A stretch of DNA of 64,000 bases. It comes from an uncultured Anaerolineae bacterium. Its GTDB lineage: Bacteria > Chloroflexota > Anaerolineae > Aggregatilineales > UBA3940. Each line of letters begins with the position of its first letter. The first letter of the stretch is position 1. Of the stretch, positions 23,390 through 48,402 are shown piece after piece. The translations under genes and the position numbers were made by a program. The DNA is taken from contig CAYMGV010000001.1 in NCBI GenBank assembly GCA_964390105.1, positions 132,088 to 196,087 on the forward strand. Direction: 5' to 3'. The notes under the pieces were generated by a model that searched no databases, was not told the origin of the DNA, and worked only from the letters and a program-made list of their open reading frames with translations.

Positions 23390-23392
23390 CAG

Positions 23393-23474
23393 TGCCCTGG
23401 GTGGGACTCGAACCCACACGCCCAAAGGGCATAGGCCCTCAACCTACCGCGTATGCCAATTCCGCCACCAGGGC
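23393..23474 (-). tRNA. tRNA-Leu (anticodon GAG), class II long variable arm; CCA not encoded
   Basis: Acceptor GCCCTGG/CCAGGGC, anticodon stem GTAGG/CCTAT with loop TTGAGGG, variable arm GCCCTTTGGGCGT, T arm GTGGG-TTCGAGT-CCCAC. Confidence 0.9.
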
Positions 23475-40960: not shown

Positions 40961-40981
40961 ATTTTAAGGCGTATGGTGTCA

Positions 40982-41015
40982 ACGAGCGAAGCTAATCACT
41001 TCGCTCGTTTTTGTT
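40982..41015 (+). terminator. Intrinsic terminator after the SPFH gene (overlaps the recombinase 3' fragment on the other strand)
   Basis: ACGAGCGAAG-CTAATCA-CTTCGCTCGT followed by TTTTGTTTTTGTT. Confidence 0.75.
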
Positions 41016-42240
41016 TTTGTTGGGCGTCCCGGGGTCAAGAAAGTCCAGATACTTCCGGGTAGTTGCTGACGTCCCGTGCATTGCGGCAGCCTGGGTTTCA
41101 TGAACACTGCCAGTGCTGCTCAGACTCGACTTTATCCATTTTTGAGCAGAGAGCAGGGGCAGATTACGCATAAACCCAGAAATTCGTTCGAAATAGGTGA
41201 AGTCTGGGTCAGACTACAGACCCCATCCTATTTATTCGGGTTCCGCGATTGGTGTTGATGTTCCCTATGGTGGCGTTCTGAACAGATACATTATCGTCTC
41301 CTGCTGCTGCCGGTAGTTCGAGCGTAAACCCGGGCCGGTCTCGGCTTCTGACCGATGTCTTATGTTCATCATAACTCACTTTCCGTGAGTGTCTACCAAA
41401 TGGATAAAGTCGAGTCAGAGTCACTGCCACGAAATAGTGCCGGAAGCTGTGAGGAGTAATTGATATCCCTTTCTCAGCGATCTCTCGGCGTTCCTTGGGT
41501 GATAAGGCCATGCTCATTACGTGATCGATGATATTTGAGGCAGTCCAGCGTAAAATCGAGAGGAGGCTGTTACTGGCTCGTTTGTCATGGCGAGCAAAGA
41601 GTATCGATTGTGGGGTTGATTTGTAATCCCTGCTGCGTGCATTGAGATAGCGGCTTAACGCCTGTGTTGTTTGAATAGTTAGTGTAACCGCTTCTCCACC
41701 TACCGGTAACAGCATGCTTTCACCGGGGTTGAAGTTACTCTCACGCAGGCTCACGACGCCCCCTACCCTGAGGCCGGTCTCCGCAAGAACGAGTACAAAG
41801 GCTCGATCACGCAGATTGCGATATGTGGTGCGCGCGCTGCCTGGATCAGGTTGTGGTGACCAGTTGATCGCGAAAGCGTGGATTTTTTCGATTACATCAA
41901 GTGGCAAATCTGGGAGATTATGCTGTTTTGGCCTGCGCAGTTGGGTAATTGCTTCTTCTATTGCATGGTTATCTATCGGTAGTGATTCTGTGTTCGCAAG
42001 AAACTCGACGTAACGAAGCAGGGCACGGGAGTAAACATGCTCAGTCTCGACAGAAGCATTATTCTGGAGGTGGAGCAAAAATGTTTCAACATCAGTGATA
42101 TCAATGATGACTATGTTTTTATTAGTGTGATGGACCCAGTCTGCAAACTGTCTCACAGCCCGCGCATAAACATCGGCAGTCGAGGCCGAAAACTCGGCTG
42201 CCAACCAGCGTTCATAGGTATCAAGATGCCAGCCCGCCAT
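40992..42240 (-). pseudogene. Tyrosine recombinase (phage-integrase family) interrupted by a 290-bp insertion
   Basis: The track ORF 41209..42240 has a SAM-like N-domain, ETGLRVGG (Arg) and HSFRH (His-x-x-Arg), then a nonsense tail. The missing end ...SSTGSVHETQAAAMHGTSATTRKYLDFL... (His and Tyr region) is encoded on the same strand at 41119..40992. Joining 42240..41415 to 41119..40992 gives 954 nt, which is 317 codons plus a stop, in frame. Confidence 0.85.
41125..41414. mobile_element. MITE-like non-autonomous insertion (290 bp) with 17-bp perfect TIRs and a 5-bp target-site duplication
   Basis: TIRs are CTCGACTTTATCCATTT (41125-41141) and AAATGGATAAAGTCGAG (41398-41414). Direct repeat TCAGA lies at 41120-41124 and 41415-41419. 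There is no transposase-like ORF inside. Family unassigned. Confidence 0.8.
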
Positions 42241-42286: not shown

Positions 42287-42298
42287 ACTTCGTGTAGT
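42287..42298 (-). repeat. Motif copy A (ACTACACGAAGT, the only inverted copy)
   Basis: Plus strand reads ACTTCGTGTAGT. The copy is intergenic, 46 nt upstream of the recombinase ATG (42240). Confidence 0.95.
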
Positions 42299-42348
42299 AT
42301 AAGTTGATAATTAAAACGAAATGGAATGGAAAGGGGTACTGTGTTTCG

Positions 42349-42367
42349 ATATCACTACACGAAGTTT
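42349..42367 (+). repeat. Motif copy B (ATATCACTACACGAAGTTT)
   Basis: 19 nt identical to copy E. It abuts and overlaps by one base the hflX stop codon (42367-42369). Confidence 0.95.
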
Positions 42368-43743
42368 TATTCGCTATCATCTACCAGGTAATCGGAATAC
42401 CTGCCAAGCTCCGTTTTGAGAATCCTTGCTGATATCCAGTATCCATTATCACGCACTTCCTCGGCATCCACATGGCCGGTCTCAAATAACCCGGCACGAA
42501 CGGCACCATCGGCGAAGGGGATATGCAGATCAACAGGAGTAAATCGAAGATGAAGCATTTCCATCACATGGCTGAGCAGATCATTGATGCCCTGCCCAGT
42601 ATGTGCTGATGTATAAAACACGTCCCGGGCCAATCTGTCAAAACGGGTGAGGTCTTCATCCCCTTCCAGGGCATCTATTTTGTTGATCACAAGAATAATG
42701 CGGGTTTGCGGATCGAGTTGAATATCGTCTTGCAGAATGCGATTTACCGTGCGGATGTGGGCCTCACAATGCGGATGCGTGCCATCTACCACATGCATCA
42801 CAATGTCGGCTTCTCGAACTTCCTCGAGTGTGGCCCTGAAGGCAGCAATAAGATCAGTAGGCAACTTCTGGATGAAACCAACCGTATCAGAAAACAAGAC
42901 ACTTTGCCCATCGGGCAGATCAACACGGCGGGTTGTGGGGTCCAATGTGGCAAAAAGCTGGTCAGCAGTAAGGACCCTTGCCCCACTCAGACGATTCAGC
43001 ATCGAGGATTTGCCAGCGTTTGTATAACCAACCAACGCCACAACCGGAATAGCGGATTTCCGGCGCTGCTGGCGATGCCGCTCACGATGGGCGCGCACAT
43101 CCTCCAGTTCGACTTTGAGCTGCGAAATAATACGACCGATCTCACGGCGGTCAGTCTCAAGCTGGGTCTCACCGGGGCCACGCAAGCCGACACCACCAGA
43201 GCCACCTCGCGCGGAACCACCACCGGCCTGACGGGCAAGGTGTGTCCACTGACGTGTCAACCGTGGCAGCCGATACTCATACTGGGCAAGGGAGACTTGC
43301 AACGTTCCTTCGCGGGTGCGGGCATGCTGAGCAAAGATGTCCAAGATCAAGGCTGTTCGATCAAGCACCCGGATATCATCGCCAAACACCCGGTCCAGTT
43401 CTCGCTGGTGTCGAGGTGAGAGTTCATCGTCAAACAACAACACCTGAGCGTCGAGTTCCTCGGCCCACATCTTGATCTCCTCCACCTTCCCCGACCCTAC
43501 ATAGGTCCGAGAATTTGGGACGCGAAGACGCTGCGTCGTCTGGCCGACCACATGCATACCCGCCGTATCCGCCAGCAAAGCCAACTCCTCAAGCGAGGCT
43601 TCTGCTGGCAGCATTTCACGATTGCTATGGAGATCAACGCCGACAAGGAAAGTGCGTTCAGGCGCAGGTTGAATTATCTCGGTTATGGGATCACCCCCCT
43701 CATGACTACACGAAGCTACTTGTATTATACCATGCAGCAACAC
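42367..43743 (-). CDS. hflX: GTPase HflX
   Basis: ERTFLVGVDL...SLEELALLADTAG, RTREGTLQVSLAQYEYRLPRL, VALVGYTNAGKSS (G1), DTVGF and NKID. The track ORF extends to 44031 inside the upstream gene. I place the start at GTG 43743, with SD GGGAGG 9 nt upstream; there is no canonical start codon further downstream before the conserved N-terminus. Confidence 0.8.
   Translation of the reverse strand: MLLHGIIQVASCSHEGGDPITEIIQPAPERTFLVGVDLHSNREMLPAEASLEELALLADTAGMHVVGQTTQRLRVPNSRTYVGSGKVEEIKMWAEELDAQVLLFDDELSPRHQRELDRVFGDDIRVLDRTALILDIFAQHARTREGTLQVSLAQYEYRLPRLTRQWTHLARQAGGGSARGGSGGVGLRGPGETQLETDRREIGRIISQLKVELEDVRAHRERHRQQRRKSAIPVVALVGYTNAGKSSMLNRLSGARVLTADQLFATLDPTTRRVDLPDGQSVLFSDTVGFIQKLPTDLIAAFRATLEEVREADIVMHVVDGTHPHCEAHIRTVNRILQDDIQLDPQTRIILVINKIDALEGDEDLTRFDRLARDVFYTSAHTGQGINDLLSHVMEMLHLRFTPVDLHIPFADGAVRAGLFETGHVDAEEVRDNGYWISARILKTELGRYSDYLVDDSE
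43702..43716 (+). repeat. Motif copy C (ATGACTACACGAAGC)
   Basis: 15 nt identical to copy D. It covers the aminotransferase stop codon (…AGC TTC GTG TAG on the minus strand) and hflX codons …ASCS…. Confidence 0.95.
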
Positions 43744-44887
43744 GGCCCATGGCCTCCCGTATCCGCTGCACTTCCTGCACGATGGACATGCGCAGATAGC
43801 CACGCCCCATCTCACCATATACACTGCCTGGCACCATTGAGACGTGGGCATTCTCCAATACGTCTGCGCAGTACGCCTTGTCGTCTCCACCGGGAACCTT
43901 AGCCCACACATAAAGTGACGCAGGCGGCACGCTGGCAGCAAGGCCAATGGACGGCAGCGCTTCAAGAATGACATCTCGTCGGGCTGAATAGATTGTGTTA
44001 CGCTCCTCAATCCAATCTTGGTCCGTCTCATTGAGCGCTACAATCGCGGCTTCCATCACCGCCCGGAACATGCCGCTATCAACATTACTCTTACAGTGCA
44101 ACAAGCCCTGTACGACCTGGGAGTTGCCTACGCAGGCCCCGACGCGCCACCCGGCCATATTGTAAGCCTTAGACAGCGAGTTGAACTCGACAGCACTCTC
44201 TTTTGCCCCTGCGACACACAGCACGCTGGGCGGATCGACCCCATCAAAGCTGACCTCAGCATAGGGATTATCCGAGCATAGCAGAATGTCATGGGACTTG
44301 CAGAAGGCCACGATCTGTTCGTAATCCTCAAGGGTCGCAACGGCCCCGGTGGGGTTGTTGGGGTAGTTTACCCACATCATTTTTGCACGGGCCAGTATGT
44401 TTGCGGGGATCACATTGAGATCGGGCTGAAAACGATTCTCCGGATCAAGCCGGACAAAATACGGCTCAGCATCCGCAAGCCGCGCCCCACGCTCGTAGGA
44501 TGGGTATGCCGGGTCGGGAATCAACACCACATCCCCCGGGTCAAGGAAGGCAAGATTCAGATGCACGATGCCTTCTTTAGAGCCAATCAGCGGCAGTACT
44601 TCGGTTTCAGCATCAACACTGACACCAAATCGACGAGAATAGTACGCCGAAAATGCTTCACGCAGCCGCGGGATGCCTGCAAATCCAGCATACCCGTGGT
44701 GATTCGGTTGGCGGGCCGACTCATACAATGCCTCGACGACAGCAGGAGGCGGCGGCATATCGGGGCTGCCCATGTCAAGCCGGATGATGTCTTTGCCCTG
44801 AAGCTCCAGTTCCCGCACACGGGAGCTGATCGCAGCAAAGGCATAGGGCGGGATTGTTTTCAGGCGCTCAGAAAGCTCGAACTCCAT
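43706..44887 (-). CDS. Class I/II PLP aminotransferase (AspC/DapL-like)
   Basis: Contains IPPYAFAAI, NYPNNPTGAV and FNSLSKAYNMAGWRVG (PLP lysine). Confidence 0.8.
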   Translation of the reverse strand: MEFELSERLKTIPPYAFAAISSRVRELELQGKDIIRLDMGSPDMPPPPAVVEALYESARQPNHHGYAGFAGIPRLREAFSAYYSRRFGVSVDAETEVLPLIGSKEGIVHLNLAFLDPGDVVLIPDPAYPSYERGARLADAEPYFVRLDPENRFQPDLNVIPANILARAKMMWVNYPNNPTGAVATLEDYEQIVAFCKSHDILLCSDNPYAEVSFDGVDPPSVLCVAGAKESAVEFNSLSKAYNMAGWRVGACVGNSQVVQGLLHCKSNVDSGMFRAVMEAAIVALNETDQDWIEERNTIYSARRDVILEALPSIGLAASVPPASLYVWAKVPGGDDKAYCADVLENAHVSMVPGSVYGEMGRGYLRMSIVQEVQRIREAMGRVAAWYNTSSFV

Positions 44888-44901
44888 GCGCTGTCCTGTT
44901 C

Positions 44902-45870
44902 TTAACCTGGCGGGAAGATGCCACCCTGTTCCTCCAGGAAGACCTCCAGCGTCCGGCCTATGCGCTCAAGGCTATCCGGTGACACCTTATCTATTGTGTC
45001 ATCCACAGTGTGCCAGTACTCGTAGTCAAAGTCGATCATATCCACCGCAGGGATGCCAACCCGCAGAAAGGGGGTATGGTCATCCAAGATCGCGTACTTG
45101 TCCTGTGGGATGATGGTGTCACTGTAGCCCAATGATGCCGCGATCTCCCATAGATGTTCCATCATACCACGGTTAGAAGTCGTCTCATAGAACACCTGTT
45201 GATCCGCATCGCCTATCATATCAACAATCACGGCGTACTCCGGATACTGGGTTTCATCAAGTGATTGTACGAAATACGTTGAACCTTCAATCCAATCCCA
45301 GTCATCAATCCGCCCATTGTCTTCTGCATCAAAGAAGACAAGCCACGGTTGGATCTGTAGCGCAGCGGGTTCCATCACGCGAGCCAGTTCAAGCAGGACA
45401 GCAGTGCCACTTGCCCCGTCATTAGCCCCCGGCACAGGCTGCTGAGGATACAGCGGATCGTTGTCAGCATAGATGCGAGTGTCATAGTGCGCACCATAGG
45501 TTGCAGATGGCAGGCCTTCCATGCCGGGCAGGTGTGCTATCAGATTGACCCCGGTCACACCATTGACGGTAAATTCCTGGCGCACAACAGTCCAACCTGC
45601 CTCCTGGAGATGAGCAATGATGTATGCCTGCGCCAACTGTGAGCCTTCGGAACCCACGATACGCGGCCCCATATCCACCTGCGCAATCACATGATCATAG
45701 GCAACTACCCCATCAAAGGTCAGTGGTACAGGGTCAGCCGGTGTTGACGTGGGGAGTGTCTCCGTGACTGTCGCAGCGGGAGCCAGCGCCTCACCCTCCT
45801 GCCCCGAAGCGGCACACGCAGACAGAAGCAGAAGTATCCCAACCATCATGATCATCTGGTTACGAGTCAT
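44902..45870 (-). CDS. M28-family metallopeptidase, lipoprotein-type signal
   Basis: Contains [10 protein letters not shown] (lipobox-like), [24 protein letters not shown] and FFDAEDNG. Confidence 0.75.
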
Positions 45871-47192
45871 ACAAGCTCCGTCCGGGACAGGTAATCTTCC
45901 AGCGCCTGGCGGCCACGTTCGACGTATCGAGCATAGCGTTCGCGCTTGTTCCTGACCTTTTGGGGCAGAGCCGGCATGATGCCGAAATTAGCCTTCATCG
46001 GCTGGAATTGTTTGGCGTCCGACTTGCAGACATACGCGGACAGCGAACCGATCATGGTTTCCCCAGGGAAAACCAGCATCTCCTGTCCATGAATATATCG
46101 AGCCAGATTCTTGCCAGCGATCAACCCTGATGCAGCATTACCGACATACCCCTCAATCCCTGTAATTTGCCCAGCAAAGAACAGATCAGGGCGGGCAGCG
46201 TACTGCATGGTGGGGAGTAACAAGGTCGGTGAATTCAGGAAGGTATTGCGATGCATCTGCCCCAATCTGATGAACTCAGCGTCCTCAAGCCCGGGTATCA
46301 TCCGCAGAATACGACGTTGTTCTGGCCACTTGATGTTGGTCTGAAAGCCGACAAGGTTGTACATCTCCCCGGCCACATCATCCTGGCGAAGCTGAACTAC
46401 GGCATAGGGCCAGCGCCCGGTGCGGGGATCAGTGATACCGACCGGACGCAGCGGCCCGAAGGCAAGCGACTTTTCGCCGCGCCCTGCCATCACTTCAATA
46501 GGCAAACAGCCCTCGAAGAAGTTTTTGTCGTTCTTCTCAAAGTCACGCAGTTCGATACGCTCGGCACGCAGCAGTTCATGAACAAAGGCATCATACTCCT
46601 CCTTGTTCATAGGGCAGTTGATGTAATCCCCGGCTTCCTCCTCACCACGATCATAACGAGACGCACGAAACGCGATATCAAAGTTGATTGATTCATATGT
46701 GACAATGGGGGACAACGCGTCGTAGAAATACAGGTATTCTTCACCGATCAGGGTGCCGATCTCACCGGCCATGGCGCTGGACGTGAGCGGCCCGGTAGCG
46801 ATGATGGTCGGTTCACCGGGTATAGTCGTCGCTTCCTCACGGCGCAGTTCGATCCGTGGGTGATTATCGATGGCACCTGTTACCAGTTCACCGAATTTCT
46901 CGCGACCTACGGCCAGCGCACCACCAGCCGGCACGCGCGACTCATCAGCAGCCCGCATGATCAGCGAATTCATACGGCGCAGTTCTGCCTTGAGCATACC
47001 CCCTGCCCTGTCAGGCAGGTCTGAACCCAGTGAATTACTGCATACCAATTCAGCCAGTTTGTCCGTCACGTGAGCCGGGGTTGACTTCATCGGGCGCATC
47101 TCCCACAAAACCACGGAGACCCCGGCCTCCGCAAGCTGCCAGGCAGCCTCTGTGCCTGCAAGCCCACCGCCAATGACATGTACCTTCTGCAT
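45867..47192 (-). CDS. trmFO: Folate-dependent tRNA (U54) methyltransferase TrmFO
   Basis: [25 protein letters not shown]...LVCSNSLGS...[19 protein letters not shown]. The alternative start is GTG 47216. Confidence 0.85.
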
Positions 47193-47287
47193 GATGTTTC
47201 TCTCAATACCCAGCACTCGTGCCTTAAGCTGGCGATTTTAGCATGGTTTAAGGACAATGTGTATTGAGTGCTTGTCTACATTTTATA

Positions 47288-47302
47288 ATGACTACACGAA
47301 GC
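47288..47302 (+). repeat. Motif copy D (ATGACTACACGAAGC)
   Basis: It overlaps the last two bases of a TATAAT hexamer (47284-47289) and ends 8 nt upstream of the glycosyltransferase ATG (47311). Confidence 0.95.
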
Positions 47303-47310
47303 ATAGCTGC

Positions 47311-48402
47311 ATGGCACGAGTCCTTCTGCTTGAACCCTATTTCACCGGCTCACATCGCGCATGGGCGTTGGGCCTGAAGCGACACAGTCGACACCACATT
47401 GAGCTTCTGACGCTGCCAGGGCGTTTCTGGAAGTGGCGAATGCATGGCGCTGCCATCACACTCGCACGAATGGCGCTCGAACTACCGCATCGCTACGATG
47501 TTATCCTCGCAACCGATATGATTGATCTGGCATCCTTCATGGCACACGCACGGCATCGCTTTGGCAGCACGCCAACAGCGAGCTACTTCCACGAGAATCA
47601 ACTAACCTATCCCCCTCCCCCCGGCAGCAAGCAGGACCTGCACTATGGGTTTATCAATTACAATTCGGCACTGATCGCCGATCAAGTACTGTTTAATTCG
47701 CGCTTTCACAGGCAGGTGTTCATCAATGAATTGCCCCGGCTGCTCAAACACTTCCCGGATTTCAATAACCTTGAAACCGTTGGTGAGGTTGCGGGTAAGA
47801 GCCGGGTGCTCCCGGTGGGGATGGATTTCAGCGCACTGAAAGCCGCACAGTCTGCCGACCTGACGGAAGGTCCGGCTCGCATTGTGTGGAACCATCGATG
47901 GGAGTATGACAAACAACCGGAGGTGTTTTTCGAGGCCCTGTACGCCCTTCAGGGGGGCGGCAGTGCATTTCAGGTCATCATACTAGGGGAGAGCTTTAGA
48001 AACCAGCCTGAGGAGTTCCTGGAGGGCCAGGGGCGTCTACGCGATCATATCCTGCACTGGGGATATGCGGAATCAACGCAGCAATACGCAAAGCTGCTAT
48101 GGCAGGCCGACATCCAGGTAAGCTGCGCCATACAGGAATTCTTTGGTATCAGCACGCTGGAAGCGATGTATACCAACTGCGCCCCCCTGCTCCCAAACCG
48201 GCTGGCTTACCCGGAGCTGCTTCCTGAGGTGTACCATCTCGATCACCTGTATGATGGGTTTGACCCCTTTGTCCAGAAGCTAAAGTACATGGTTGACAAT
48301 GTAGGACATACGCGGGGAATATCACTACACGAAGTTTCGGCGCGGTATGCATGGGAGCGGGTCATCGGGCAATATGATGACATGATCGATGAGTTGGCAT
48401 AA
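47311..48402 (+). CDS. DUF3524 N-domain plus GT-B (group 1) glycosyltransferase, homologous in pattern to eukaryotic GTDC1
   Basis: MARVLLLEPYFTGSHRAWALGL...LLTLPGRFWKWRMHGAA parallels GTDC1 (…EAFYGGSHKQLVDLL…LPAKKWHWRARTSA…, from memory). The C-terminal EFFGISTLEAMYTNCAPLLP is an EX7E-type GT4 motif. The track start 47257 is an upstream extension. Confidence 0.7.
   Translation: MARVLLLEPYFTGSHRAWALGLKRHSRHHIELLTLPGRFWKWRMHGAAITLARMALELPHRYDVILATDMIDLASFMAHARHRFGSTPTASYFHENQLTYPPPPGSKQDLHYGFINYNSALIADQVLFNSRFHRQVFINELPRLLKHFPDFNNLETVGEVAGKSRVLPVGMDFSALKAAQSADLTEGPARIVWNHRWEYDKQPEVFFEALYALQGGGSAFQVIILGESFRNQPEEFLEGQGRLRDHILHWGYAESTQQYAKLLWQADIQVSCAIQEFFGISTLEAMYTNCAPLLPNRLAYPELLPEVYHLDHLYDGFDPFVQKLKYMVDNVGHTRGISLHEVSARYAWERVIGQYDDMIDELA
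48319..48337 (+). repeat. Motif copy E (ATATCACTACACGAAGTTT)
   Basis: Lies inside the glycosyltransferase CDS (codons G-I-S-L-H-E-V-S), 65 nt before its stop. Confidence 0.95.

Follow-up and report, generated by a model that had tools for sequence, protein, structure and literature searches.

How did a gene of the tyrosine-recombinase family come to lose the end that holds its catalytic tyrosine? The question is raised by a 64,000-nt stretch of DNA from an uncultured Anaerolineae bacterium (contig CAYMGV010000001.1, positions 132,088 to 196,087 of the forward strand; the whole stretch is called the window here), in which the open reading frame (ORF) called at 41209-42240 on the minus strand (P0001, 343 amino acids as in the public record) begins as a recombinase and runs into foreign sequence. 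The answer that we favour, with a probability of roughly 0.93, is that a transposable element of the miniature inverted-repeat kind (MITE), 290 bp long, was inserted into a resident chromosomal gene of this family, presumably mobilised in trans by a DDE transposase of the IS701 family. The knockout of a gene by a MITE is an ordinary kind of event, and this one is unusually cleanly documented. It also corrects the annotation, as in the 343-residue 'protein' 68 residues translated from the transposon follow on 275 native ones, and 42 native residues have been cut off.

The interrupted gene and its restored reading frame

Both pieces of the gene lie on the minus strand. The 5' piece (41415-42240) comprises codons 1-275 and the first base of codon 276, including one copy of the pentamer TCAGA, and encodes an N-terminal SAM-like domain, Arg158 in the context ETGLR and His264-x-x-Arg267 in the context HSFRH; Pfam profiles match it at residues 15-76 (PF13495) and from residue 141 onwards (PF00589, Phage_integrase). 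The 3' piece (40992-41124), which includes the other TCAGA, extends from the remainder of codon 276 to codon 317 and the stop codon, and supplies His290 and the nucleophile Tyr299 (MHGTSATTRKY) without a stop or a frameshift in its frame. Removal of positions 41125-41419 (295 nt) yields a 954-nt ORF of 317 codons plus stop, in which ...GCTGCTCAGA is joined straight to GTCACTGCC... at the empty-site junction and the catalytic set is R158, H264, R267, H290 and Y299. An earlier reading of the window, made from the sequence only, had proposed that excision would give a 954-nt, 317-codon ORF with the residues RHRY, and our deletion and residue positions agree with it. So do H264 and H290 with the 25 residues that it had counted between the two histidines, and its coordinates, its 17-bp terminal inverted repeats, its TCAGA duplication and its element length of 290 bp all proved exact. 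In XerD of E. coli the two histidines are likewise separated by 25 residues and the tyrosine follows 9 residues after the second.

The reconstruction aligns across the junction with tyrosine recombinases. Against PF00589, which has a cut-off of 27.1 bits, the score rises from 27.3 bits for the interrupted ORF to 36.4 bits for the reconstruction, and the part of the 172-position profile that is covered grows from 20-137 to 20-167. The phmmer alignment to the structure of XerA (5hxy) is uninterrupted across the junction and pairs HSFRH with HVLRH, His290 with the conserved histidine and Tyr299 with the nucleophilic tyrosine.

The sequence that separates the two pieces is a non-coding element of 290 bp (41125-41414, minus strand). 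It begins with the terminal inverted repeat CTCGACTTTATCCATTT at 41125-41141 (plus strand) and ends with its perfect reverse complement (17 of 17 positions) at 41398-41414 (minus strand); its end at 41414 is similar to the one that lies nearer to the transposase in Anaerolineae copies, CCATTTGGTAGACA. On its two sides stand the copies of TCAGA, at 41120-41124 and 41415-41419, which make up the target-site duplication, in keeping with the 5-bp rule of the family described below. The G+C content of the element is 48% as against 55% for the window, its longest internal ORF encodes 39 amino acids, and its single-strand fold has a z-score of -6.1. The 17-mer occurs in the window at these two places only, even with up to 3 mismatches allowed; shuffled sequence gave an expectation of 0.13 chance matches, and two matches were seen in none of 100 shuffles. 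The palindromic nature of the target, CTC-A-GAG, also permits longer inverted repeats, of 19-23 nt, at the price of a shorter duplication. Such alternative ends, namely an 18-bp repeat with a 3-bp duplication or a 19-bp repeat with a 1-bp duplication, were set aside given the 5-bp rule, and comparison with the family favours 17-bp ends with a 5-bp duplication.

Can the gene be seen without the element? A search of the protein collection returned, besides the interrupted ORF P0001 itself, which lies on one NCBI contig of 530,648 bp, an intact protein of 313 amino acids (P0002) with 61% identity to the reconstruction at 100% coverage. P0002 is encoded on a Logan contig (L001), where the gene order is that of the window: a GIDA-family (trmFO-like) gene, an M28 peptidase gene, an aminotransferase gene, hflX and the recombinase gene. 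The two loci share 78.9% identity at the DNA level along 5.5 kb, and the hairpin and the convergent gene that follow in the window align with the P0002 locus as well. At the junction, FVAMTLNTTGS of P0002 is matched without a gap by FVAVTL joined to SSTGS in the reconstruction. Judged by this alignment, the P0002 locus is the empty site in a relative, and the uninterrupted allele that the sequence-only reading had proposed to look for is present there, collinear and gap-free at the junction. The predicted structure of P0002 (mean predicted local distance difference test score, pLDDT, of 90.4) has the two-domain fold of tyrosine recombinases, and Foldseek with this model returned XerA at 1e-09, followed by IntI4, Cre and XerD. 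The ratio of nonsynonymous to synonymous substitution rates (dN/dS) between the reconstruction and P0002 is 0.13 overall; for the 40 aligned codons of the severed piece it is 0.07, and the gene has no lesion besides the insertion. By these ratios the gene was under purifying selection, and no decay is seen in the severed piece. Since the synonymous rate (dS) is saturated at about 2, these ratios give a loose bound only on the age of the insertion.

Two features inside the element are directed toward the severed 3' piece. One is a promoter-like sequence, TAGACA-16-TATGAT, at 41368-41395 on the minus strand, which is probably a remnant of a transposase promoter. The other is an ORF of 59 codons (40992-41171, minus strand), whose ATG lies inside the MITE and which continues in frame into the His/Tyr segment, ending ...MHGTSATTRKYLDFL....

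Might the split gene then still work, either by complementation between two separately expressed pieces or by precise excision of the element? The in-frame ORF, the promoter-like sequence that points in the same direction and the exact restoration of the frame by excision can all be cited for it. Then again, folding and docking are not to be expected of a 42-residue fragment that carries one helix and the tyrosine, the promoter is a consensus match only, and precise excision of DDE-transposon insertions is rare; we know of no IS701 relative in which it is a programmed reaction. We therefore consider a functional or reversible split gene very improbable.

The element family and its transposase

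If a MITE was inserted here, the same element should be met elsewhere, and it is. A metagenome scan with a 22-mer placed across the boundary between the left terminus and the interior found the full 290-bp element in three metagenome contigs (L125-L127) at 96.5-97.2% identity, none of which matches the window outside the element. In L125 and L127 its neighbours are a glycosyltransferase-like gene on one side and a small regulator gene on the other, and TTACA flanks it at both ends. In L126 (1503-1792) the left flank is the same as that of L125 (3377-3666), the right flank is different and the 5-bp flanks are unequal, so that L126 represents either a second insertion site, the outcome of recombination between two copies or a chimera assembled across the repeat. 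The three contigs thus hold at least two combinations of flanks other than that of the window, and the sequence-only reading, which had suggested a search for further copies, is borne out by three at unrelated sites. By its near identity to these copies and its flanking repeats, the window copy is a member of a MITE family that is young and duplicates 5 bp of its target. A blastn search of the PLSDB plasmids with the element gave no match. Among the genome loci listed, similarity to the interior of the element is limited to the terminal 19-28 nt, with the exception of 43 nt at 81% identity to L076; the closest terminal relatives among these loci are Anaerolineae contig ends of the CCATTTGGTAGACA type (L056, L093, L060 and L041).

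That the repeats are a coincidence and the two ORF pieces come from unrelated genes is refuted by the occurrence of the same element in other surroundings together with the intact collinear orthologue. Nothing was left in favour of this explanation after the tests, and we give it next to no credence.

The terminus is far more widespread than the element. A scan for the 17-mer, with one genome per species, gave at least 120 loci (L002-L121) with 128 ends. They come mainly from Nostocales and other cyanobacteria, from Pyrinomonadaceae/Blastocatellia and from Anaerolineae and other Chloroflexota, with single cases in several further phyla among the matches listed. Identical 5-bp flanks enclose at least 26 complete copies, and in at least 13 more the flanks differ by one base. 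Just outside the terminus CTNAG is found in 53% of the 128 ends among the matches listed. Targets of the Chloroflexi copies are looser and T-rich, and other 5-bp duplications off the consensus also exist. Most complete copies with both ends measure 173-176 bp; such MITEs occur in cyanobacteria, Acidobacteriota, Calditrichaceae, Burkholderiales and Caldilineales (for example L010, L023, L027, L051, L053, L055 and L110), and their interiors split into separate similarity clusters.

Three loci disclose what may mobilise these elements. L045, L049 and L077 contain elements of 1440, 1455 and 1485 bp with the same 17-mer, one mismatch being present at the far end. The transposase gene of L077 is intact, and its product of 450 amino acids scores 299.5 bits with the IS701-family model NF049999 (cut-off 170) and 82.8 bits (4e-23) with PF13546 (DDE_5). 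Homologues of this transposase adjoin the terminus in five further loci. In tblastn searches of plasmids it met sequences labelled 'transposase' only, at 43-46% identity and with no named insertion sequence (IS) among them. The autonomous partner that the sequence-only reading had recommended to look for was accordingly found as a family, an IS701-type transposase between the same termini in other genomes.

How does this family compare with known ones? We take ISAba11 to typify a subgroup of the IS701 family with 5-bp duplications. IS701 elements have been described as 1400-1550 bp long, with direct repeats that measure exactly 4 bp in nearly every member examined and with the end signature ---YACT-Y--YR (PMC2266710). 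The elements of 1440-1485 bp that share the terminus of the window fit this range of length (PMC2266710), and their DDE transposase passes the family models. CTCGACTTTATCC agrees with the end signature at positions 5-7 (ACT), 9 (Y) and 12 (Y) and deviates from it at positions 4 and 13. Different from these full-length elements, the window element has 290 bp and no transposase, and the duplication is of 5 bp with a preference for CTNAG as opposed to 4 bp (PMC2266710), which places the subgroup outside the 2008 description of the family. The literature looked at gave no name for a MITE that ends in this way; going by its ends and its duplication, this unnamed MITE belongs to the 5-bp-duplication subgroup of the IS701 family. 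Like the bacterial MITEs Nezha, Correia and MITEAba12 it is short and non-coding, has the terminal inverted repeats of a full-length IS and a flanking duplication, and is present in several copies; unlike them it lies inside a coding sequence and not between genes. Our comparison of filled and empty sites among relatives follows the argument made for Nezha (PMC3184786). Nezha itself was rejected as the identity of the family, as its direct repeat is of 10 bp and its partner is ISNpu3 (PMC3184786).

The course of events would then have been as follows. An IS701-family DDE transposase that recognises CTCGACTTTATCCATTT termini would have mobilised the MITE in trans, and the filling-in of the 5-bp stagger that the enzyme made at TCAGA, a site that separates the HxxR box of the gene from its His/Tyr box, would have left the flanking duplication. 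The resulting product of 275 native and 68 element residues lacks His290 and the nucleophile Tyr299, so that no strand cleavage should be possible and function was presumably lost. The insertion is likely to be recent, mainly in view of the perfect inverted repeats, the perfect duplication and the intact 3' piece. Of the 'clean and apparently recent inactivation' of the sequence-only reading, the cleanness stands, and the recency is likely, with a dS too saturated to date it.

Several points weigh against this account. The duplicated TCAGA departs from the CTNAG consensus, and a tblastn search with the family transposase found no similarity anywhere in the 64-kb window, which thus contains no partner for the MITE. 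The protein collection holds no empty allele from the same species, the nearest intact relative being 61% identical, and the dating of the insertion is weak. Finally, the clade to which the gene belongs lacks the catalytic lysine, as described below, and it is therefore uncertain what function was lost by the insertion.

It could also be argued that the insertion is polymorphic, or the product of a chimeric assembly, and that the population carries mostly the intact allele. Copies of this family do break assemblies: many of the 17-mer termini lie 30-70 nt from contig ends, as those of repeated elements do, the flanks in L126 are mismatched, and the public record of the window is a single contig with no second source. 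Both junctions, however, fall at a single point of one gene and are marked by an exact duplication of 5 bp, and the two pieces are collinear with the orthologue, unlike what a chimera of two loci would give. A polymorphic insertion, moreover, would still be a real one. We thus regard this explanation as improbable and retain the insertion of a MITE mobilised in trans. It points to an IS701-type transposase that was recently active in this lineage, and searches with the terminus CTCGACTTTATCCATTT and the CTNAG preference can reveal elements of this type in cyanobacteria, Acidobacteriota and Chloroflexota.

The hflX-linked clade and the motif array beside it

But what kind of protein was lost? 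The more interesting by-product of the analysis is a recombinase-like gene that is syntenic throughout a clade, has a degenerate active site and is conserved together with an array of sites. The gene lies downstream of hflX in the window and in nine other loci (10 of 10), three of which were picked through HflX alone, and the order of the block is gyrA, trmFO-like gene, (M28 peptidase gene), (aminotransferase gene), hflX, recombinase gene, ..., Band_7 gene. From this constant position it is a fixed chromosomal gene and not part of a prophage. Its place near a trmFO-like gene and hflX recalls the trmFO-codV(xerC) arrangement of Bacillus subtilis. A canonical Xer-like group (P0053), 31-34% identical, is found at another locus in related bacteria.

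When 60 relatives are aligned, 4-5 residues are missing from the hflX-linked clade at the place where the canonical group has GKGxK, the hairpin with the general-acid lysine; the region corresponds to residues 170-200 of the reconstruction (about 41640-41730 of the window, minus strand). About half of the hflX-linked clade (P0002-P0031) has Lys or Thr in place of the first catalytic arginine (Arg-I) and Gln in place of the histidine of HxxR. Arg267, His290 and Tyr299 are invariant across the clade. The window protein has kept Arg-I and the HxxR histidine and contains no lysine at residues 150-206. 'RHRY recombinase', the term of the sequence-only reading, is thus right as a description of residues, and the intact protein is a candidate for recombination.

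A similar distinction applies to the label 'XerD-type' in the same reading. Like XerC, XerD and XerA, the window protein has two domains with a SAM-like N-terminus and the series R...HxxR...H...Y, and XerA, XerD, Cre and IntI are the best structural and sequence matches of the gene or its orthologue, so that the resemblance in spacing and fold stands. The NCBIfam Xer models, by contrast, score far below their cut-offs (XerA 71.2 vs 220, XerD 50.5 vs 329.6, XerC 48.6 vs 335), and the window protein differs from these enzymes in having no GKGxK lysine hairpin. No dif-like site of 28-31 bp, with two arms of about 11 bp and a centre of 6-11 bp, was found either; the only conserved inverted pair nearby has a spacer of 52-59 bp.

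This pair is part of a motif array that accompanies the gene. In the window the motif ACTACACGAAG occurs five times, at 42288-42298 (minus strand) and at 42354-42364, 43705-43715, 47291-47301 and 48324-48334 (plus strand); all copies thus fall within 42288-48334, and 0.46 occurrences would be expected in the window. The first two, separated by 55 nt, form an inverted pair (42288-42364, listed on the minus strand like the gene), which lies 48 nt upstream of the start codon of the recombinase gene. Read in the direction of the gene, the motif is (C)TTCGTGTAG(Y)GAT. Across the related loci, copies stand at gene boundaries from gyrA to hflX and are absent downstream of the recombinase gene; the copy nearest to its start is inverted, and the pair has a spacer of 52-59 bp and lies 44-130 bp before the start codon. 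In four cases the motif supplies, with its TAG, the stop codon of the gene before it, namely that of the aminotransferase (window and L001) and that of an IF-2B-family gene (L122 and L131). The layout and the recombinase gene occur together in all ten loci (window, L001, L122-L124 and L131-L135), and the degenerate core of the motif was met 7 times in 813 kb of unrelated loci. When relatives with hflX and without the recombinase gene were sought, all three loci chosen through HflX alone turned out to carry both gene and motif.

Does the recombinase act on these sites? The sequence-only reading had named it as the most plausible actor on the neighbouring motif. The recombinase-like protein is the only conserved candidate in the block for sequence-specific DNA binding, which makes a link between the two reasonable, and the case for it is circumstantial. 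Recombinases that lie next to their sites offer a parallel in XerS/difSL, FimB/FimE-fimS and the integron IntI with attI and attC. As in these systems, an inverted pair is conserved 44-130 bp upstream of the window-type gene, and additional copies in the same orientation stand at upstream gene boundaries, often on a stop codon. In contrast to them, the genes between the motif sites are housekeeping genes in conserved order, no rearrangement between the sites (inversion or deletion) is seen among the ten loci, and the length of the pair's spacer exceeds that of a core site and falls short of that of a typical invertible segment.

Other roles of the motif, as a promoter, an operator or at the RNA level, are possible. 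If the pair is read as an RNA helix, its arms are conserved in sequence and covariation is seen at position 10 only, in five of seven loci. Among the candidate identities that were tried, a dif-like core site was rejected on account of the spacer of 52-59 bp, and an extracytoplasmic function (ECF)-type -10 element (CGTGTA) was rejected as no conserved -35 element was seen on inspection of the flanks. There is no resemblance to the consensus sequences of the DnaA box or of parS. A terminus signal was considered for the switch of GC skew at about 41-42 kb, which falls where the coding strand changes and lacks the cleanness of a genome-scale signal. A literature search for the 9-mer of the motif returned primers only.

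The degenerate active site invites another view of what the MITE destroyed, namely that the knockout hit a domesticated DNA-binding protein, a regulator or organiser of the gyrA-trmFO-hflX region via the TTCGTGTAG array, and not an active recombinase; the hflX-linked clade would then have given up strand exchange. Every member of the clade is without the GKGxK hairpin and its general-acid lysine, about half have replaced Arg-I and the HxxR histidine as described, the window protein has no lysine over the stretch given above, the position is fixed in all ten loci, dN/dS is 0.13, and the motif array is kept where Arg-I has been replaced (L122, L124, L131 and L134). The invariance of Arg267, His290 and Tyr299, however, points to retained chemistry, such alignments are least reliable at the β2-β3 hairpin, and the role as a binder is read from sequence. 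We therefore treat a domesticated binder as a tentative possibility that we would not bet on; it concerns what was lost, and the insertion of the MITE into the gene holds with either kind of protein.

A broader proposal, to which we give slightly less weight still, is that an undescribed, vertically inherited, hflX-linked clade in Anaerolineae-type Chloroflexi may work with the TTCGTGTAG(Y)GAT array, as a DNA-binding factor or as an unusual recombination system. If this should be true, a MITE would have turned the genome of the window into a natural null mutant, which could be compared with its relatives.

Other features of the window

A hairpin with an 11-bp stem and a T-run after it (40981-41009) contains the stop codon of the recombinase gene, lies 3' of the convergent Band_7 gene and is kept in L001; it is probably a terminator shared by these two genes. 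The Rfam search of the whole window returned tRNAs only, with none of its matches at the element or at the motif pair. ARAGORN places a tRNA-Leu (gag) at 23392-23474 on the minus strand, and Rfam at the gathering threshold gave the other two tRNAs only. Finally, the mechanically called HflX ORF (42367-44031, minus strand, 554 amino acids) overlaps the aminotransferase gene, and a TATAAT stands 8 nt upstream of the motif copy at 43705-43715; as the orthologues have 415-440 amino acids, the true start of HflX probably lies near 43614.

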